From an uncultured Verrucomicrobiae bacterium (GTDB taxonomy: Bacteria > Verrucomicrobiota > Verrucomicrobiia > Limisphaerales > UBA11358): a stretch of 64,000 nt of DNA. The notes under the pieces were generated by a model, which worked only from the letters and a program-made list of their open reading frames with translations, had not been told where the DNA came from and searched no databases. The stretch spans positions 107,169 through 171,168 of the forward strand of contig CAWAYP010000001.1 of assembly GCA_963786375.1 (NCBI GenBank). The letters are read 5' to 3'. Shown one piece after another: positions 19,717 through 58,302 of the stretch. Position 1 is the first letter of the stretch. Each line of letters opens with the position of its first letter. The translations under genes and the position numbers were made by a program.

Positions 19717-20109
19717 GGTCGTGGAGGGTTCCTTTTGATGGTCTCTCTTGCTCATGGCCATAACGTCAATCTCTCCCCGCCTCGCAGTTCCCTGTCGCAG
19801 GGCCTGGCCGTCGTTGCCGAACTGGTACCACTAAGGCGCACATAAAGCAAAGCGCAAAGCTTCCTGGGTGAAGCGGGCTGATTATATGGTTTATTCATAA
19901 AAAGTCGAGATAATTTTTCAAAGCGCCGCCACGCAACAGCAACTGGTTCTTATAAATATTCACGGTCAGCCGATTGTTTTGCCCAATGTGACTGTTGGCC
20001 GGGACAATTCCTTTGAATTTTTTGAAAGCCACCTGAATTTTGTCACCGCCAAAATGCGAGCATTGCCCCGATCAGTCGCACCGCCCGGCCAAAGGCGTTC
20101 CGGGGGAAT

Positions 20110-21051
20110 TTACTTTTTTTCCGCGCCGGCCAGGATGGTTTGGAAATGCGGCGGCTGTTCCTCGCGGGCCACCACGCTGATTTCAATCTTTTTGAAGCCG
20201 GCCTCTTCCAGCCAGCGGTGCAAATCGCTTTCGGCGAAACCCGGCCAGCGGTCGCCGTAAAGTTCGTGCGCCTTCTCGAAGTTGTGCTTGAGCAAATCCA
20301 GAATCATGATCTGCCCGCGCGGCCGGAGAATTTTGTACGCAGCGGCAATTGCCTCGGCCGGCACCTCGGCGTGATGCAACGCCTGGCTCAAAATCACGAG
20401 GTCAGCGCTGTTTGACTCGATGGGCGGGTTCTGCAAATCGCCCAGCCGGAATTCCAGGTTCTTCAGCCCGTTCTTTTTCGCCTTGGCCGCGCCGAACGCC
20501 ACCATCTTCTCCGAATTGTCCACGGCGATGACCTTCTTGCAGCGGCGCGCCAGCAGTTCGCTCAACAGGCCTTCACCCGCGCCCAAATCAGCGACCACCA
20601 GCGGCGGCAGAATCCGCAGCAGCAGATGTCCGAACGCCTGCCACGAACGGCCCGGGCCATAGACCCGGTCGAAGCGGCCGGCAATCTGGTTGAAATAAAC
20701 CTGCGCCTGTTCGCGGCGGCGGGCGAGGATGCGCTTGAGATTGATCTGGTCGCCTTCGTATTCGGGCAGTTCCTTCGCGCCGCGAATGGCCAGTTGGATC
20801 AGCTCCCGCGCCGCGCCGTCGGCCGGCTGGTTTGCTTTGTAAAACGTCCGCTTGCCCTCGCGCCGCGATTGCAGCAGCCCGGCGTCCTGCAAGAGGCCCA
20901 GATGCGTCGAGATGCGCGACTGGCCCAGCCGCGTGACTTCCTGCAACTCGTTGACCGACAATTCCTCCCGCTCCAGCAGCGCCACCATGCGCAGGCGCGT
21001 TGGATCGGACAAAGCTCGAAGCGATTTCAGGGCCGAGGGCATCATTTTCAA
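20110..21051 (-). CDS. ArsR-type HTH fused to a SAM-dependent methyltransferase-like domain (SahR-like regulator)
   Basis: LSDPTRLRMVALLEREELSVNELQEVTRLGQSRISTHLGLLQDAGLL (ArsR HTH) followed by VADLGAGEGLLSELLARRCKKVIAVDNS (class I MTase motif I). Divergent from metK. Confidence 0.8.
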   Translation of the reverse strand: MKMMPSALKSLRALSDPTRLRMVALLEREELSVNELQEVTRLGQSRISTHLGLLQDAGLLQSRREGKRTFYKANQPADGAARELIQLAIRGAKELPEYEGDQINLKRILARRREQAQVYFNQIAGRFDRVYGPGRSWQAFGHLLLRILPPLVVADLGAGEGLLSELLARRCKKVIAVDNSEKMVAFGAAKAKKNGLKNLEFRLGDLQNPPIESNSADLVILSQALHHAEVPAEAIAAAYKILRPRGQIMILDLLKHNFEKAHELYGDRWPGFAESDLHRWLEEAGFKKIEISVVAREEQPPHFQTILAGAEKK

Positions 21052-21079
21052 TACGCGCCGTGATTTTTCAAGAAACCAG

Positions 21080-21119
21080 TTGACGCGCTGTCCAAATGAT
21101 ATATCATCTTATCCTGATA
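21080..21119 (+). promoter_or_regulatory. candidate metK promoter overlapped by palindromic operator candidates
   Basis: TTGACG (21080-21085), 16-nt spacer, TATCAT (21102-21107). Perfect 12-bp palindrome ATGATATATCAT (21096-21107), and TATCA-N8-TGATA (21102-21119). Read by eye only. Confidence 0.4.
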
Positions 21120-21149
21120 CGTCAATATGACATTTAAACAAATTTAGCC

Positions 21150-22325
21150 ATGAGCAAAAACTTCATATTTTCCTCGGAGTCCGTCGGCGAAGGCCATCCG
21201 GACAAGGTTTGCGACACCATTTCCGATTACGTGCTGGACGCCTGTCTGGCGCAGGACCGGCACAGCCGCGTGGCCTGCGAAACCTACGCCAAGAGCAACC
21301 TCGTGGTGGTCGGCGGCGAAATCACGACCAAGGCCAAGCTCGATTTCAGCGCCATTGCCCGCCAGGCCATTCGCGACATCGGCTACACGCACGACGACGA
21401 CGTGTTTCACGCGGACAAGGTGCTCATCATGAACGCCATCACGTCGCAATCGCCGGACATCGCCCAGGGCGTGGACGCGCGCAAGGCGGTCGGCAAGAAG
21501 AAGGCCGAGCAGGGCGCCGGCGACCAGGGATTGATGTTTGGCTACGCGACGACGGAAACGCCCGAACTGATGCCCGCGCCCATCATGTACGCCCACAAGC
21601 TGGGCCGAGCGCTGACCCAAATCCGCAAGAGCGGCAGGGTCGCGTGGCTGCGGCCCGACGCCAAGAGCCAGGTATCCGTCCGCTATGTGAACGATCAGCC
21701 GGTGGCCATCACCAATGTCGTCATCTCCACGCAACACGCGCACGATGTGAAGCACAAGACCATCGAGGAATTTTGCATCGAAGAAGTCATCAAAAAAGTT
21801 TTGCCGAAGCGTTTGCTCACCAAAAAGACGCTGTTCCTCATCAATCCGACCGGCCGGTTCGTCGTCGGCGGACCGCAGGGCGACACCGGCCTGACCGGGC
21901 GGAAAATCATCGTGGACAGCTACGGCGGAATGGGCCGTCACGGCGGCGGCGCCTTCAGCGGCAAGGACCCGTCGAAGGTGGATCGCAGCGCGGCCTACAT
22001 GGGCCGTTATGTCGCCAAGAACATCGTGGCGGCGGGCCTGGCGACGAGCGCGGAAATCCAGTTTGCCTACGCCATCGGCTATCCCGATCCGGTCTCGGTT
22101 TGCGTGAACACCTTCGGTACCGGTATGGTGAGCGATGAGGCCATTGAAAAGGCGGTGGCCGAGGTGTTCAGCTTCAAGCCCGCCGATATCATCAAACAAC
22201 TCAACCTGCTCCGGCCGATTTACGCCCGGACCACCAACTACGGTCACTTCGGCAAGAGCGATCCCGCGATCACCTGGGAAAAAACGGACAAGGTCAAAGA
22301 ACTCAGGCGTGCTTTAAAAATATGA
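21150..22325 (+). CDS. metK: S-adenosylmethionine synthase
   Basis: [53 protein letters not shown]: canonical MetK. Confidence 0.97.
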
Positions 22326-22799
22326 GTTTCAAGTTTGAAGATTCAAGTTTCAAGAAAAGCGGATTTCGTCAGCTTGAAACTTCCAACTTGATCGCTTGAA
22401 ATTTTAGTATGGCTTATCACTCGTTTGAAGATTTGGAGGTGTGGAAGCGCGGCTGTCGTTTGGCGGTTGAAGTCAGCCGGACGCTTGCCAAAACCCGCGA
22501 GTATTTTGTTCGCGACCAGATGCAGCGCGCGGCACTTTCCATTCCTTCCAACATTGCGGAAGGCTCGGAACGCGACAGCAAACTTGATTACATTCGCTTT
22601 CTTCGCATTGCCAAGGGTTCGGCGGCAGAGCTTCGAACACAGTGCTACATTGCGGCCAAACTCGAAATCTTAAAGAAGACTGACGCGGATCGTGTTGTCA
22701 CCGAGTGCAAGGAAATCGCCCCTATGTTGCAAGGATTGATTCGCGCCATTGGATGGGTGACAGCTCTCACTTGAAGCTTGAATCTTGAAACTGAAAACT
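22326..22799 (+). mobile_element. four-helix-bundle gene cassette bounded by imperfect inverted TTCAAG/CTTGAA-rich flanks
   Basis: The left flank 22326-22354 is GTTTCAAGTTTGAAGATTCAAGTTTCAAG. The reverse complement of the right flank (22775-22799) reads ...GATTCAAGCTTCAAG, matching the left GATTCAAGTTTCAAG at 14 of 15 positions. It fills the whole metK-ahcY spacer. Mobility is an inference. Confidence 0.45.
22409..22774 (+). CDS. four helix bundle protein (23S rRNA intervening-sequence protein family)
   Basis: FEDLEVWKRGCRLAVEV ... IPSNIAEGSERDSKLDYIRFLRIAKGSAAELRTQCYIA is the family signature; ~120 aa. Confidence 0.85.
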   Translation: MAYHSFEDLEVWKRGCRLAVEVSRTLAKTREYFVRDQMQRAALSIPSNIAEGSERDSKLDYIRFLRIAKGSAAELRTQCYIAAKLEILKKTDADRVVTECKEIAPMLQGLIRAIGWVTALT

Positions 22800-24272
22800 A
22801 TGCAAAAATTAAAATTGTCTCCCTCTCGTCGAAAAGTCGCCAGTGCCGCGAACGGCAACGGCGCGGCCAAACACGATTACGCCATCAAGGACCTTTCCCT
22901 CGCCGAATGGGGGCGCAAAACCATCGAGGTTTGTGAACACGAAATGCCGGGTCTCATGGCCATCCGCAAAAAATACGGCCCGACCAAGCCGCTCAAGGGT
23001 GTGCGCATCACCGGTTCGCTGCACATGACCATCGAGACGGCGATCCTCATCGAAACGCTCGTGGCCATCGGGGCGTCCGTGCGCTGGGCCAGTTGCAACA
23101 TCTTCTCCACCCAGGACCAGGCCGCCGCCGCGATCGCGAAGGCGGGCATTCCCGTGTTCGCGCACAAGGGCGAAACCCTCGAGGAATACTGGCAGTTCAC
23201 GCTCAACGCGCTCACGCACCCGGGCAATTTGGGACCGCAACTCATCGTGGACGATGGCGGCGACGCCACGCTCCTCATCCATAAAGGCTATGAACTCGAA
23301 AACGGCAGCGACTGGGTCAACACGCCCAGCGACAACCATGAAGTGGCCGTCATCAAGGCGCTGTTAAAAAAGGTGGCCAAGGAACGTCCCGGTTTCTGGC
23401 ACACGGTCGTGAAGAATTGGAAGGGCGTTTCCGAGGAAACCACCACCGGCGTGCATCGGCTTTATCAAATGCTCGAGCAGGGCAAATTGCTCGTGCCCGC
23501 CATCAACGTCAATGACTCCGTCACCAAGTCCAAGTTCGACAACCTCTACGGCTGCCGCGAATCGCTCGCGGACGGCATCAAGCGGGCCACGGACGTGATG
23601 ATCGCCGGCAAGGTCGCGGTCGTGTGCGGCTATGGCGACGTCGGCAAAGGCTGCGCGCATTCGCTCCGCGGCTTCGGCGCGCGCGTCATTGTGACCGAGA
23701 TTGACCCCATCAACGCGCTGCAGGCCTCCATGGAAGGATTCGAGGTGACGACCCTCGAGGACACCCTCGGCGAAGGCGATCTGTATGTGACGACCACCGG
23801 CAATTGCGACGTCATCACGCTGGAGCACATCCTCAAGATGAAGGACCAGGCCATCGTGTGTAACATCGGCCACTTCGACAACGAGATTCAGGTGGACCGG
23901 TTGAACGCGCTCAAGGGCGTGAAGCGAATCAACGTGAAGCCGCAGTATGACAAGTACGTGCTGCCCAACGGCCGCACGATTTATCTGCTCGCCGAAGGCC
24001 GGCTCGTAAACCTCGGTTGCGCCACCGGCCATCCGAGTTTCGTGATGAGCAACAGCTTCACCAATCAATGCCTCGCGCAACTGGATCTGTGGGCCAAACG
24101 CGACACCAACCAGGTCGGCGTTTATCGTCTGCCCAAGAAGCTGGACGAGGAAGTCGCCCGGCTGCACCTCGACCGCATCGGCGTGAAGCTGACCAGGCTC
24201 ACCAAGAAGCAGGCCGACTACCTTGGCGTGCCATTGGAAGGTCCTTACAAGCCCGAGCATTATCGGTATTAA
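22800..24272 (+). CDS. ahcY: adenosylhomocysteinase
   Basis: [40 protein letters not shown] (NAD-binding), [10 protein letters not shown]-terminal [10 protein letters not shown]. The ORF track offers TTG 22785; ATG 22800 is preferred. Confidence 0.95.
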
Positions 24273-24475
24273 AATTTGGAGGGCACTTCTTCGTCAGTGC
24301 CCTGAAGTTTGGGCAGCGATGAAACTGCCCTCCAATCATACAAGCTGCCGTTTAGCAGACCGCTCACTTGGCCGGTGGCCGTCTCGCCTTGCGCCAAGGC
24401 GGCGGTCGCCGTTCCCAGCGTGACCAGGAGACTCAAAAACAGTTTTGTGGGAATCACTTTCAACGTTATTTTCAT
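24269..24475 (-). CDS. small hypothetical secreted protein
   Basis: [29 protein letters not shown] looks like a signal peptide, but the C-terminal third is encoded by the palindromic repeat. Weak call. Confidence 0.3.
24276..24335. repeat. composite palindromic element (family A-like variant) directly after the ahcY stop
   Basis: TTGGAGGGCAC-ttcttcgtca-GTGCCC-tgaagttt-GGGCAGcgatgaaaCTGCCCTCCAA. Same plan as family A: an outer GGAGGG/CCCTCC repeat enclosing two inner hairpins. Confidence 0.7.
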
Positions 24476-24776
24476 CGGATTTTTCCTCAACTTGGTAGTG
24501 TGTTCTAATTCAAAAAATACCCCGCGTTCCGTTGTAAGAGGGAGAAACTGCAAAAAGGTTCCAAATTATTCCCAGCAACCCCGTTGGTTTTCTTTTCCTG
24601 CAATCACGGCACGTTACGAGATCAACCTATTGGCAATCGCATGTTGTCGCACGAACCTGCCACGATGAGACTTCCCGCGGTAAAAATAATTTGATTTCGA
24701 GAAATCTGTGATAAGGTACACTGCACATTAATATTGTTTGACTTATGACGCGACGCGACCGGAAAGGCATTAAAAC

Positions 24777-25505
24777 ATGAAAGCCACGCTGCCAAGCAAT
24801 GAAATTGAACGGCTTGCGGCCTTGAAGGAGTATCACATTCTCGATACCGGGACCGAGCAGTCCTACGACGATATCACCGCCCTGGCGGCGCATATTTGCA
24901 AGGTTCCCGTTGCCATGATTTCCCTGGTGGACGAAGTCCGGCAGTGGTTCAAATCGAGATTGGGAGTGGAGCAGCAGCAAACGCCCCGCGAGGTCGCGTT
25001 TTGTGCGCACGCGATTCTCCAGAGTGGGCCCTTCATCGTGCGGGACGCAACGAAGGACCGGCGGTTTGCCGGCAGCAGGCTGGTCACGGGCAAACCCCGT
25101 ATCCGGTTTTACGCGGGCATCCCGCTGATCAACCCGGAAGGACTGGCCTTGGGAACACTCTGTGTTGTGGACCATCAACCGCGCCGGCTTTCGGGCACAC
25201 AACAGAAGGCGCTGCAGGCCCTGTCGCGGCAGGTCATGGCGCTGCTGGAGTTAAGGCGGGTTTCAACCCATCTGGCGGATGCGCTCGATCACGTCAAAAC
25301 GTTGCAGGGGTTGCTGCCCATCTGCGCCTGGTGCAAGCGCATCCGCGATGACGAAGGATACTGGAGTCAGGTTGAAGCTTACTTCCATAAAGCCACGGGC
25401 GCTGATTTTACCCACGGCATTTGTCCGGAATGCCTGCGGAAGGCGCTTCCCCCGAAGTCGCACCAAGGATCAACGGCTGAGGCTGTGGTGCGTCCAGGGA
25501 CCTGA
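24777..25505 (+). CDS. GAF domain signalling protein with a C-terminal four-Cys module
   Basis: ERLAALKEYHILDTGTEQSYDDITALAAHICKVPVAMISLVD...FCAHAI...RFYAGIPL is GAF-like. The C-terminus is LPICAWCKRIRDDEGYWSQVEAYFHKATGADFTHGICPEC. Confidence 0.8.
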   Translation: MKATLPSNEIERLAALKEYHILDTGTEQSYDDITALAAHICKVPVAMISLVDEVRQWFKSRLGVEQQQTPREVAFCAHAILQSGPFIVRDATKDRRFAGSRLVTGKPRIRFYAGIPLINPEGLALGTLCVVDHQPRRLSGTQQKALQALSRQVMALLELRRVSTHLADALDHVKTLQGLLPICAWCKRIRDDEGYWSQVEAYFHKATGADFTHGICPECLRKALPPKSHQGSTAEAVVRPGT

Positions 25506-33543: not shown

Positions 33544-35782
<2,239 letters not shown>

Positions 35783-56910: not shown

Positions 56911-58302
56911 ATGAACGCCGCCGACCGCGCCAAACTCATCCGCGATTCACTCCCGCCGGGTGGTTTGTTTGCCAATCAAGACTGGCATACTTCGCCGGCG
57001 CCATTTCCGCTCGGTGAAAATCTGGCGAAGGAAATCGAATCACTGGGCCGCGTGTTGCTGCAATTCTATCGCGCGGTCAATCTGCTTTACCGGCGCAGCG
57101 TGGAAGGAAAACAGCCGGCGTGGATTGCGGATTTGCTGGACCACGGCAAGCCCGCGGAATTGATTGAGTTTCAGCGTTCGCCCGCGTTCAAGAATGACGT
57201 GCCGCGCGTCATCCGGCCCGACATTTTACTGACGGAAAACGGACTTGGCATCACCGAACTCGACTCCGTGCCCGGCGGCATCGGCTTGACGGCGTGGCTT
57301 GGGCGGACGTATTCCAACCTTGGGAGGGACGGCAGGTTACCGTCCCAAACTTTGGAAACGTCAACGGATAAATCAGGGACGGCGACACGCCGTCCCTCCC
57401 AGGAGATCATCGGCGGCGCGGATGGAATGATTCATGGTTTTGAAAGCATCTTTGGTGACGCGAAACAAATCCACATCGTCGTTTCCGAGGAAGCCGCGAC
57501 TTACCGGCCGGAAATGGAATGGCTGGCCGGACAATTTGAAGATTCAAGATTCAAGATTCAAGATTCAAAATTTGAAAGCTTCGCCGATGGTGATGCGGTT
57601 TACCGGTTCTTTGAACTGTTTGATCTGGCGAACGTCCCGAATGCAAAAAAAATCTTTGAACTGGCCGCTGGAAAAAAAATCCGGCTGACACCGCCGCCCA
57701 AGCCGGTTTTTGAGGAGAAGCTGTTGTTCGCGCTTTTGTGGAACCGGAATTTGCGCGAGTTCTGGCGGCAGGAACTGGGTGAGGGATTTTTATCGCGTCT
57801 GCAAAAATTGATTCCCTACACGTGGGCGGTGGATCCGGCGCCGCTGCCGCCGCACGCGGCGATTCCCGGACTGAATCTTACCGACTGGCGGCAACTTAAG
57901 GGCTTGTCCCAAAAGGAGCGCGAACTGATTTTGAAGGTGTCCGGTTTTTCCGAGCACGCGTGGGGCGCGCGCGGCGTCCATCTCGGCAGCGATTTGGCGC
58001 AGGCGGACTGGAGCGCGGCAGTGGACCGGGCCATTGCAGGCTTTTCGACTTCGCCGTTTGTGTTGCAACGTTACGAAAAACCGAAACTGGCCGAGGCGCA
58101 GTGGTTTGATTTTGACAAGAACGTCCTCGTGCCGATGAAAGGCCGGGTTCGGTTGTGCCCGTACTATTTTGTGGCCGGCGAAGGCGACGCGGCGCGTCCG
58201 CAACTGGGCGGTGTGCTGGCAACCATTGTTCCCGCCGATAAAAAAATTGTTCACGGCATGAGTGACGCAATTCTCGCGCCGTGCGCCATTGAGCCGGGGT
58301 GA
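56911..58302 (+). CDS. ATP-grasp-like amidoligase (circularly permuted ATP-grasp / glutathionylspermidine-synthase-like)
   Basis: Overall layout and segments such as RPDILLTENGLGITELDSVPGG, ILKVSGFSEHAWGARGVHLG and VLQRY suggest this superfamily. Not verified. Carries two in-frame repeat inserts. Confidence 0.6.
   Translation: MNAADRAKLIRDSLPPGGLFANQDWHTSPAPFPLGENLAKEIESLGRVLLQFYRAVNLLYRRSVEGKQPAWIADLLDHGKPAELIEFQRSPAFKNDVPRVIRPDILLTENGLGITELDSVPGGIGLTAWLGRTYSNLGRDGRLPSQTLETSTDKSGTATRRPSQEIIGGADGMIHGFESIFGDAKQIHIVVSEEAATYRPEMEWLAGQFEDSRFKIQDSKFESFADGDAVYRFFELFDLANVPNAKKIFELAAGKKIRLTPPPKPVFEEKLLFALLWNRNLREFWRQELGEGFLSRLQKLIPYTWAVDPAPLPPHAAIPGLNLTDWRQLKGLSQKERELILKVSGFSEHAWGARGVHLGSDLAQADWSAAVDRAIAGFSTSPFVLQRYEKPKLAEAQWFDFDKNVLVPMKGRVRLCPYYFVAGEGDAARPQLGGVLATIVPADKKIVHGMSDAILAPCAIEPG
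57322..57400. repeat. composite palindromic element, family A, inside the ATP-grasp gene
   Basis: GGGAGGGACGGCAGGTTACCGTCCC...CAGGGACGGCGACACGCCGTCCCTCCC. Read in-frame as GRDGRLPSQTLETSTDKSGTATRRPSQ. Confidence 0.85.
57541..57568 (+). repeat. (GATTCAA)x4 microsatellite inside the ATP-grasp gene
   Basis: gattcaa x4 within TTTGAAGATTCAAGATTCAAGATTCAAGATTCAAAATTTGAAAGCTTC. Translated as FEDSRFKIQDSKFESF. Confidence 0.85.

Follow-up and report, generated by a model that had tools for sequence, protein, structure and literature searches.

The closest described counterparts of the element analyzed here are the intervening sequences (IVSs) of 23S rRNA that carry an open reading frame (ORF). In Coxiella burnetii, the IVS with its S23p ORF has a 28-base-pair (bp) stem that is cut internally by RNase III, and tandem heptamers precede its PF05635 ORF (Warrier et al. 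2016, PMC4990558). The Coxiella ORF has been reported as decaying (PMC4990558), and Leptospira also has ORF-bearing 23S rRNA IVSs (Ralph and McClelland 1993, as cited in PMC4990558). Here, we describe a gene cassette with the same protein family and a similar layout that lies between two protein-coding genes, metK and ahcY, in a 64,000-nucleotide (nt) stretch of DNA from an uncultured Verrucomicrobiae bacterium. This stretch, hereafter the window, corresponds to G000:C1:107169-171168, where G000 is the source genome (3.04 Mb in 17 contigs, 57.6% G+C). We favor with moderate confidence, by analogy to the rRNA elements, the reading that this is a gene cassette of the IVS kind seated in an operon instead of in rRNA, and that its arms would form an RNA stem of ~30 bp that loops the insert out and places the metK stop codon beside the ahcY start codon.

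Avd, the accessory protein of diversity-generating retroelements, is a PF05635 relative that forms a pentameric four-helix bundle and has a nucleic-acid-associated role. Like the metK-ahcY cassette, integron cassettes with their attC sites, and repetitive extragenic palindromic (REP) elements with their REP-associated tyrosine transposases (RAYTs), join a small promoterless gene to imperfect inverted repeats that are kept as structure, and their presence varies among genomes. The short tandemly repeated repetitive (STRR) sequences of cyanobacteria are over-represented heptameric tandem repeats. The GGGAATC repeats of Xanthomonas and the heptameric tandem repeats of Nostoc are likewise over-represented (Rehm et al. 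2015, PMC4692102), and Geobacter metallireducens carries elements of four heptanucleotides (PMC2700814). A 23S_rRNA_IVP gene with the motif RxxxSxxxNxxE has been described between cmr3 and cmr2 in cas operons (Zhang and Ye 2013, PMC3936711). In a full-text search of the literature, we did not find the operon-borne, heptamer-armed form described.

A four-helix-bundle gene between heptamer arms fills the metK-ahcY gap

The gene for S-adenosylmethionine synthetase (metK, 391 amino acids [aa]; positions 21150 to 22325 of the window, plus strand; PF00438, PF02772, and PF02773, E values of 5e-39 to 3e-64) ends with a TGA stop codon called from the ORF and profile matches (22323-22325, plus strand). 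The gene for S-adenosylhomocysteine hydrolase (ahcY, 490 aa; 22800 to 24272, plus strand; PF05221, E value of 1e-145) starts with the ATG at 22800, a start picked through alignment with relatives. The 474-nt gap between them is filled by a single 121-aa ORF on the same strand (22409 to 22774), as an earlier note on this DNA had reported in assigning the gene to the four-helix-bundle family. Profile matches, the family motif, and a match in the PDB all agree with that assignment. The protein matches the full profile of PF05635, the 23S rRNA-intervening sequence protein family (positions 1 to 106; E value of 2.9e-32; 111.5 bits against a cutoff of 33.8), TIGR02436 (109 bits against a cutoff of 24), and the four helix bundle protein model NF008912 (145 bits against a cutoff of 124), and it also matches the solved homopentameric protein XCC0516 (PDB 2GSC; E value of 1.8e-15) and the structure 2RLD. 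The family motif RxxxSxxxNxxE is intact (RAALSIPSNIAE), and its R, S, N, and E positions (RAALSIPSNIAEG, residues 40 to 52) are kept in all 12 orthologs described below. When the longer form of the motif, GxxRxxxSxxxNxxE (PMC3936711), was applied, the protein had Q instead of G three residues before the R (DQMQR). The ratio of nonsynonymous to synonymous substitution rates (dN/dS) of the gene is 0.03 to 0.12 among orthologs, which indicates that the cassette gene is functional and that its protein is under strong purifying selection. The earlier note had inferred a mobile or selfish cassette, and the second term is not supported as stated in view of this selection. We also considered whether it might be an accessory gene of a diversity-generating retroelement. 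The protein shares the fold family of Avd, but its gene adjoins metK and ahcY, and no reverse transcriptase or template or variable repeat was present between 20110 and 24272; this candidate was rejected.

The ORF is enclosed by an inverted repeat of 30 nt (22325-22354 against 22770-22799) that is 87% complementary. TTCAAG/CTTGAA-rich inverted flanks had been noted before, and both of the strings then quoted lie within this repeat, namely, GATTCAAGTTTCAAG at 22340-22354 and CTTGAAGCTTGAATC at 22770-22784 (reverse complement, GATTCAAGCTTCAAG). Beyond that description, we found that the outer arms are arrays of four heptamers, that there is a third arm, and that the stem directly abuts the stop codon of metK and the start codon of ahcY. 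The left arm, A (22325 to 22354, plus strand; GTTTCAA GTTTGAA GATTCAA GTTTCAA G), recovered by the inverted-repeat search and in the minimum-free-energy and centroid folds, has the final base of the metK stop codon as its first nucleotide. The right arm, A'' (22770 to 22799, plus strand; CTTGAAG CTTGAAT CTTGAAA CTGAAAA CT), recovered by the inverted-repeat search and in the folds, overlaps the final 5 nt of the four-helix-bundle ORF and finishes one base before the ahcY ATG. After a 16-nt loop read from the sequence (22355 to 22370, plus strand), A is followed by the inner arm, A' (about 22371 to 22404, plus strand; AGCTTGAAAC TTCCAAC TTGATCG CTTGAAA TTT), found by inverted- and direct-repeat searches. 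Over 19 nt, A' is complementary to A (89%); it also repeats A'' in direct orientation and ends 4 nt ahead of the ORF start. Arms A and A'' each have 17 of 21 matches at a shift of 7, just below the strict array rule used for the genome below.

When the RNA from 22311 to 22815 was folded, the long-range A:A'' stem closed both the minimum-free-energy and the centroid structures (-162 kcal/mol, z score of -2.5). The arms folded alone gave -33.3 kcal/mol (z score of -8.7), and the local A:A' hairpin gave -25.6 kcal/mol (z score of -3.7). To compare the cassette with the other small genes of the genome, we used an ungapped Watson-Crick stem score between the 170 nt before each start codon and the interval from -60 to +120 nt around each stop codon. 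The inverted repeat exceeds chance: the cassette scored 40, while the 753 other small genes had a mean of 16.4 and a 99th percentile of 24.5; only two of the 753 reached 40, both of them framed by repeats themselves. A scan of the plus strand of the metK-ahcY gap for promoters and terminators gave no match above chance. The sole promoter-like site on the plus strand between 20900 and 24500 is a sigma-70-like match upstream of metK (21080 to 21107; TTGACG-16-TATCAT, 10 of 12 positions, a consensus match only). An Rfam scan of 20000-25000 gave no match at E values up to 1, and so no riboswitch or known RNA motif was found in the gap.

Nine cassettes of the genome each have their own matching arms

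The family had been described as scattered in many copies in some genomes, and this genome bears that out: it has nine PF05635 genes, and every one of them is preceded by a heptamer array and followed by its reverse complement. Flanking repeats are thus present around all of the other copies as well. The nine heptamers are all different (GTTTCAA, GGTCGAG, CAGAAGT, GATTTAC, GATTGAT, GTGACCA, GGAGCAA, GAGGCGY, and CACAGTC), and the proteins share 30 to 46% aa identity with one another. Duplexes between the left and right arms of the same cassette had a mean of -41.8 kcal/mol, compared to -11.1 kcal/mol for arms taken from different cassettes, and the best partner of each arm was its own counterpart in all nine cases. 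We then extended the set to 38 cassettes, comprising the nine of this genome, 11 orthologs of the metK-ahcY cassette, and 18 taken from further genomes of the same genus. In the median, the left arm lies at -1 nt relative to the stop codon upstream, and the next start codon follows the right arm at +2 nt. Because the heptamers differ while the pairing and the flush geometry stay, the arms are conserved as structure and position and not as sequence. An inner A' arm was found in 16 of the 38 cassettes. A transposon with common terminal repeats was also considered as an explanation for the nine copies, and it was rejected given nine different heptamers, 30 to 46% identity, and an orthologous lineage with all 12 members at a single site. 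In three loci from other genomes of the genus (L063, L064, and L069), GGTTGAG-armed cassettes stand directly after what looks from the sequence like a tRNA 3' end (...GGTTCGATTCCCGTACGCGCTACCA).

Heptamer arrays are also found apart from the cassettes. With the strict rule, the genome contains 118 arrays with a period of 7, compared to 0 to 2 for each of the periods 8 to 11. These arrays draw on a limited vocabulary of heptamers, typically have about four units each, and are spread across the genome, some of them within coding regions and translated through. A partner search restricted to strict Watson-Crick pairing left almost none of the 118 paired, while a tolerant version separated three classes. 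For about 70 arrays, no inverted partner within 1.3 kb outscored the real-array control. About 30 fold into hairpins with short loops, and the pairs that span longer distances (350 to 470 nt) are the four-helix-bundle cassettes. A test of G-poor arrays against start codons was weak, since the random control already reached 30%. Two arrays elsewhere in the window are translated: (GATTCAA)x4 at 57533-57577, of the left-arm heptamer family, is in frame in a 463-aa ORF (56911-58302) as GQFEDSRFKIQDSKFES, and GTCCACA repeats (34113-34140 and ~34073-34088) lie in the N-terminal part of a 690-aa thiC-like ORF (33710-35782; ...KVHSPQSTI...). The gene for RNase III, rnc, is present (C10:130481-130864), and just upstream of it, four TCGAACA heptamers and their complement, 19 nt apart, make a short-loop hairpin (G000:C10:130976-131013). 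The 23S rRNA gene (C3:220859-223749; 2,891 nt against a model of 2,925 positions) has no insert or intervening sequence.

A wider run of the stem score over genes of 60 to 400 aa also brought up genes of other families. Six of the top eight are repeat framed, namely, two PF13366 GxxExxY nuclease genes, a RAYT-like pair, one MazG gene, and one Fic gene; the top eight also include two others. The MazG pyrophosphohydrolase gene (PF03819; G000:C12:220258-220905) lies inside inverted GCAGAGA-type heptamer arrays and the Fic gene (PF02661; G000:C15:878-1921) inside inverted CCTTCAG-type arrays, which shows that genes other than those for four-helix bundles can have heptamer arms. The PF13366 (GxxExxY, PD-(D/E)XK) genes at G000:C16:28801-29223 and G000:C3:8867-9241, the first called by Pfam and the second by eye from its sequence, are flanked by inverted repeats of 28 to 32 nt with a period of ~9 to 10 nt. 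With this pair, the genome has another type of small gene enclosed by repeats. The two RAYT-like proteins, each of ~200 aa, are encoded at G000:C12:210089-210697 and G000:C8:59184-59855 with palindromic repeats around each gene; a Pfam scan of the C12 protein, the one of the two that was scanned, gave no match.

The occurrence of the same heptamers inside and outside cassettes bears on one alternative to our reading, which we regard as unlikely although compatible with an RNA stem. The protein, whose solved relatives are pentamers, would bind its own tandem heptamers sequence specifically as RNA or single-stranded DNA, so that the arms would be its cognate sites, serving autoregulation or retention, and the lone arrays would be further targets. 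Each of the nine paralogs does have a different heptamer, the vocabulary of the 118 arrays is limited, and at least seven of the nine cassette heptamers recur elsewhere as lone arrays or short hairpins. GTTTCAA/CTTGAAA, for instance, recurs at C10:73797, C12:180433, C13:87288, C15:66051, and position 57533 of the window. The arrays have about four units and the solved homolog is a homopentamer (PMC4990558; PDB match), and the strong purifying selection on the protein would also fit. However, the abundant CTCAAAA, GTCCAAA, and TCCGAAA families have no cassette in the genome, protein type tracks heptamer type only as far as shared descent accounts for, and heptamer arms enclose the MazG and Fic genes as well. 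In a broader version, PF05635 proteins would be heptamer-specific readers, and cassettes, gene-less hairpins, and lone arrays would make up one protein-repeat system at cistron boundaries, of which the 23S IVS would be the special case in rRNA; we consider this version quite improbable.

The site is empty, hairpin bearing, or filled in related genomes

The earlier note had suggested comparing the metK-ahcY spacers of relatives, and we inspected 28 such loci from across the order. The two genes were adjacent in all 28, and the gap was empty (5 to 124 nt) in 24 of them, so that the cassette gene is not syntenic in all relatives. Three of the empty gaps (L011, L027, and L039) contain a lone G-poor heptamer array just ahead of the ahcY ATG, and three others (L028, L036, and L037) contain a short hairpin. 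The filled state is scattered, requiring four changes on the metK tree and four on the ahcY tree, and every filled genome has an empty near neighbor. Orthologs of the cassette protein form a sharp group at 66% identity or more, present in 12 of the 121 genomes examined from the genus, with the next best match at 46%. All 12 sit between metK and ahcY, and all 12 have the layout A, A', ORF, A''. Among close relatives, the site is found in three states: empty, with a short hairpin only, or occupied by a cassette, of which there are at least four diverged types.

Among the orthologs, the heptamer has changed jointly in all three arms, giving the types GTTTCAAG, GTGTTCAG, GTTTTCAG, and GGTTTCAGG. 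In an alignment of the outer arms of the 12 orthologs, 91% of the cells were paired, and 8 of the 21 pairs had changed on both sides. The covariation score was 0.26, compared to 0.116 in shuffles (none of 500 reached 0.26), and slid controls scored far lower, with the caveat that the sequences are related and that the structure was derived from these same sequences. These data show that the arms stay complementary through compensatory changes.

The compensatory changes are difficult to reconcile with the view that this is an ordinary accessory gene, in which slippage-made arrays would be the usual spacer material, their inverted layout would have no role, and the patchy distribution would reflect gene loss and recombination. 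The abundance of arrays in the genome, including those in coding regions, and the lone arrays in some of the empty metK-ahcY gaps are as this view would predict. It does not, however, account for the own-matching inverted arms of all nine paralogs (against two of 753 control small genes at a score of 40), for the flush geometry over 38 cassettes, or for the same layout being known around the family in 23S rRNA, and we consider it very unlikely.

The short hairpins in the empty sites of two genomes, G021 and G006, were compared with the joined arms of one cassette type. In the four comparisons, 0, 1, 5, and 87 of 500 shuffles reached the observed score. This is suggestive only, and the hairpins could be arms without cargo.

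Cassettes are exchanged horizontally at a single site

We compared the divergence of the cassettes with that of their flanks. Cassette and flank identity were essentially unrelated (Spearman rho of 0.05), while metK and ahcY identity were correlated with one another (rho of 0.42). Between G000 and G138, the flanks are 96% identical (synonymous divergence [dS] of ahcY, 0.16) and the cassettes 69% identical (dS, 1.94); between G051 and G017, the flanks are 92% and the cassettes 66% identical. The reverse is seen between G051 and G071, with flanks 82% identical (dS, about 0.7) and cassettes 93% identical (dS, 0.32). Since the divergence of cassette and flank is uncoupled in both directions, simple vertical inheritance was rejected. 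Hypermutation of the cassette was rejected as well. At the nucleotide level, the G138 cassette is 83 to 84% identical to its counterparts in G051, G142, and G071, although the flanks in these three genomes are just 78 to 80% identical to those of G138, and hypermutation cannot explain the discordance because each cassette type is common to distant hosts. In G138 (L049), the closest relative, metK matches in two overlapping pieces (residues 1 to 241 and 233 to 391), which suggests a frameshift or an assembly error.

The divergent tract begins ~40 nt inside metK and ends 45 to 100 nt inside ahcY. Four pairs of filled and empty sites and one pair with swapped cassettes were compared, and we saw no sharp junctions or target duplications among them, although the boundaries are blurred and the gaps too diverged for a firm call. 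That the tract extends into both neighboring genes is consistent with homologous recombination, and the simplest reading is that alleles are exchanged by this route through the conserved metK and ahcY flanks. For several genomes, the tree of metK also conflicts with that of ahcY (G020, for example, groups with G024 by metK and with G003, G010, and G021 by ahcY), and recombination breakpoints may therefore cluster in or near the gap. Because the gap is mostly empty, the filled state is scattered, and the cassette genealogy is uncoupled from that of the flanks, the cassette can be dispensed with and is transferred horizontally. Within the genus, it stays faithful to one site. The term mobile, as used in the earlier note, thus holds for dispensability and horizontal exchange. 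It does not carry over to self-mobility or transposition, which nothing indicates: all 12 members of the lineage occupy one site, the nine copies share no arms, no target duplication was seen, and no transposase or recombinase is linked to the cassette, whose sole ORF is the 121-aa protein and whose neighbors are metK and ahcY.

A looped-out insert as the proposed mode of action

If our preferred reading is correct, the cassette would be transcribed within the metK-ahcY mRNA, and its outer arms would close a stem of ~30 bp whose base joins the metK stop and the ahcY start, with the 474-nt insert looped out. Inserts would be tolerated between coupled genes because the host operon would keep working under such a stem. 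Like the stems of the rRNA versions, this one would be a putative RNase III substrate. Ribosomes finishing metK would melt arm A and so free the ahcY start region, otherwise held by A'', or, by way of the alternative A:A' hairpin, the start region of the cassette's own gene, otherwise held by A'. This proposal is supported by the arms being flush with the stop and start codons, by the presence of the stem in the folds, and by the lack of an internal promoter or terminator match in the gap. The own-matched arms of all nine paralogs, the compensatory changes, the precedent of the Coxiella IVS, and the presence of rnc also speak for it.

Several observations weigh against the looped-out stem. The wobble test showed no excess of G.U pairs and does not support selection at the RNA level; among the transition-type mismatches on the sense strand, the A.C type outnumbered the G.U type by 83 to 43 (by cassette, 19 to 10). 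The complementarity could equally be maintained in DNA or through arrays that evolve in concert. Given 118 arrays in the genome, ~70 of them unpaired and without a cassette, the arms might be local spacer material. Finally, with A' in only 16 of the 38 cassettes, the alternative-hairpin idea cannot be general.

The wobble result bears directly on a further alternative, that the cassette is a mobile element acting at the DNA level. Its arms would then be hairpin or cruciform recombination substrates, comparable to attC sites, the ends of IS200/IS605 elements, or REP-like sequences, and either an enzyme encoded elsewhere or the bundle protein itself would act on them, so that the cassette would be inserted and excised. 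An excess of A.C over G.U on the sense strand is what would be expected from G.T-tolerant pairing of the other DNA strand. Such an element would also fit the filled/empty polymorphism, the uncoupling from the flank genealogy, arms kept as structure and not as sequence like attC sites, the direct repeats A' and A'' on both sides of the ORF, and the resemblance of the gene-less G021 and G006 hairpins to joined arms (0 to 5 of 500 shuffles in three of the four comparisons). The RAYT-like genes of the genome, including the C12 gene whose product had no Pfam match, could be counted in its favor as well. On the other hand, all 12 cassettes of the lineage share a single location, the divergence of the paralogs (30 to 46% identity) shows that they are old and therefore not the result of recent spread, and no candidate recombinase is linked to the cassette. 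The absence of a visible target duplication or sharp junction, with a divergent tract that reaches into both metK and ahcY, points the same way. We consider a DNA-level element improbable.

Upstream of the operon and divergent from metK is a gene for a fusion of an ArsR-type helix-turn-helix domain and an S-adenosylmethionine-dependent methyltransferase domain (20110-21051, minus strand), which is a plausible candidate local regulator of the methionine-cycle operon.

Discussion

The metK-ahcY cassette resembles the ORF-bearing IVSs of 23S rRNA in its protein family (PF05635), its size (about 430 to 470 nt), the stem of ~28 to 30 bp around the ORF, and the heptamers in the arm before the ORF. 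It differs in location, lying in the intercistronic gap of a protein-coding operon, whereas the IVSs lie in helix 25 or 45 of 23S rRNA, and on our preferred reading it would therefore work like an IVS without being one. Excision by RNase III is demonstrated for the rRNA IVSs, while for the metK-ahcY cassette we propose it by analogy. The two also differ in the state of the gene, as the cassette ORF is under strong purifying selection and the Coxiella ORF is reported to be in decay. The IVP gene of the cas operons provides a second parallel, a gene of the same family and with the same motif wedged between two genes of an operon, though the operon here is metabolic; that report (PMC3936711) does not describe flanking repeats around the cas-operon genes.

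The likeness to the other systems is more limited. Unlike integron cassettes, the metK-ahcY cassette has no integrase, attI site, or cassette array, its arms stand on both sides of a single gene, and its lineage is tied to one site; unlike REP/RAYT systems, it has no RAYT linked to it. The heptamer arrays of this genome are similar to those of Xanthomonas, Nostoc, and Geobacter in that most have four 7-nt units, occur in many copies both between and within genes, and in some cases form inverted pairs. They differ in that many heptamers are involved here rather than one and most are not G-quadruplex prone, and the reports on those genomes make no link to four-helix-bundle genes or cassettes.

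The nature and origin of ORF-bearing IVSs have been in question since the early 1990s, and the same package is found here between two housekeeping genes in a protein-coding operon. With three natural states in close genomes, the metK-ahcY site is a tractable comparative system, one that allows the arms to be tested as RNA (through RNase III processing and translational coupling), as DNA recombination sites, or as protein-binding sites. It also links the excess of heptameric repeats long noted in certain bacterial genomes with one particular gene family, PF05635.

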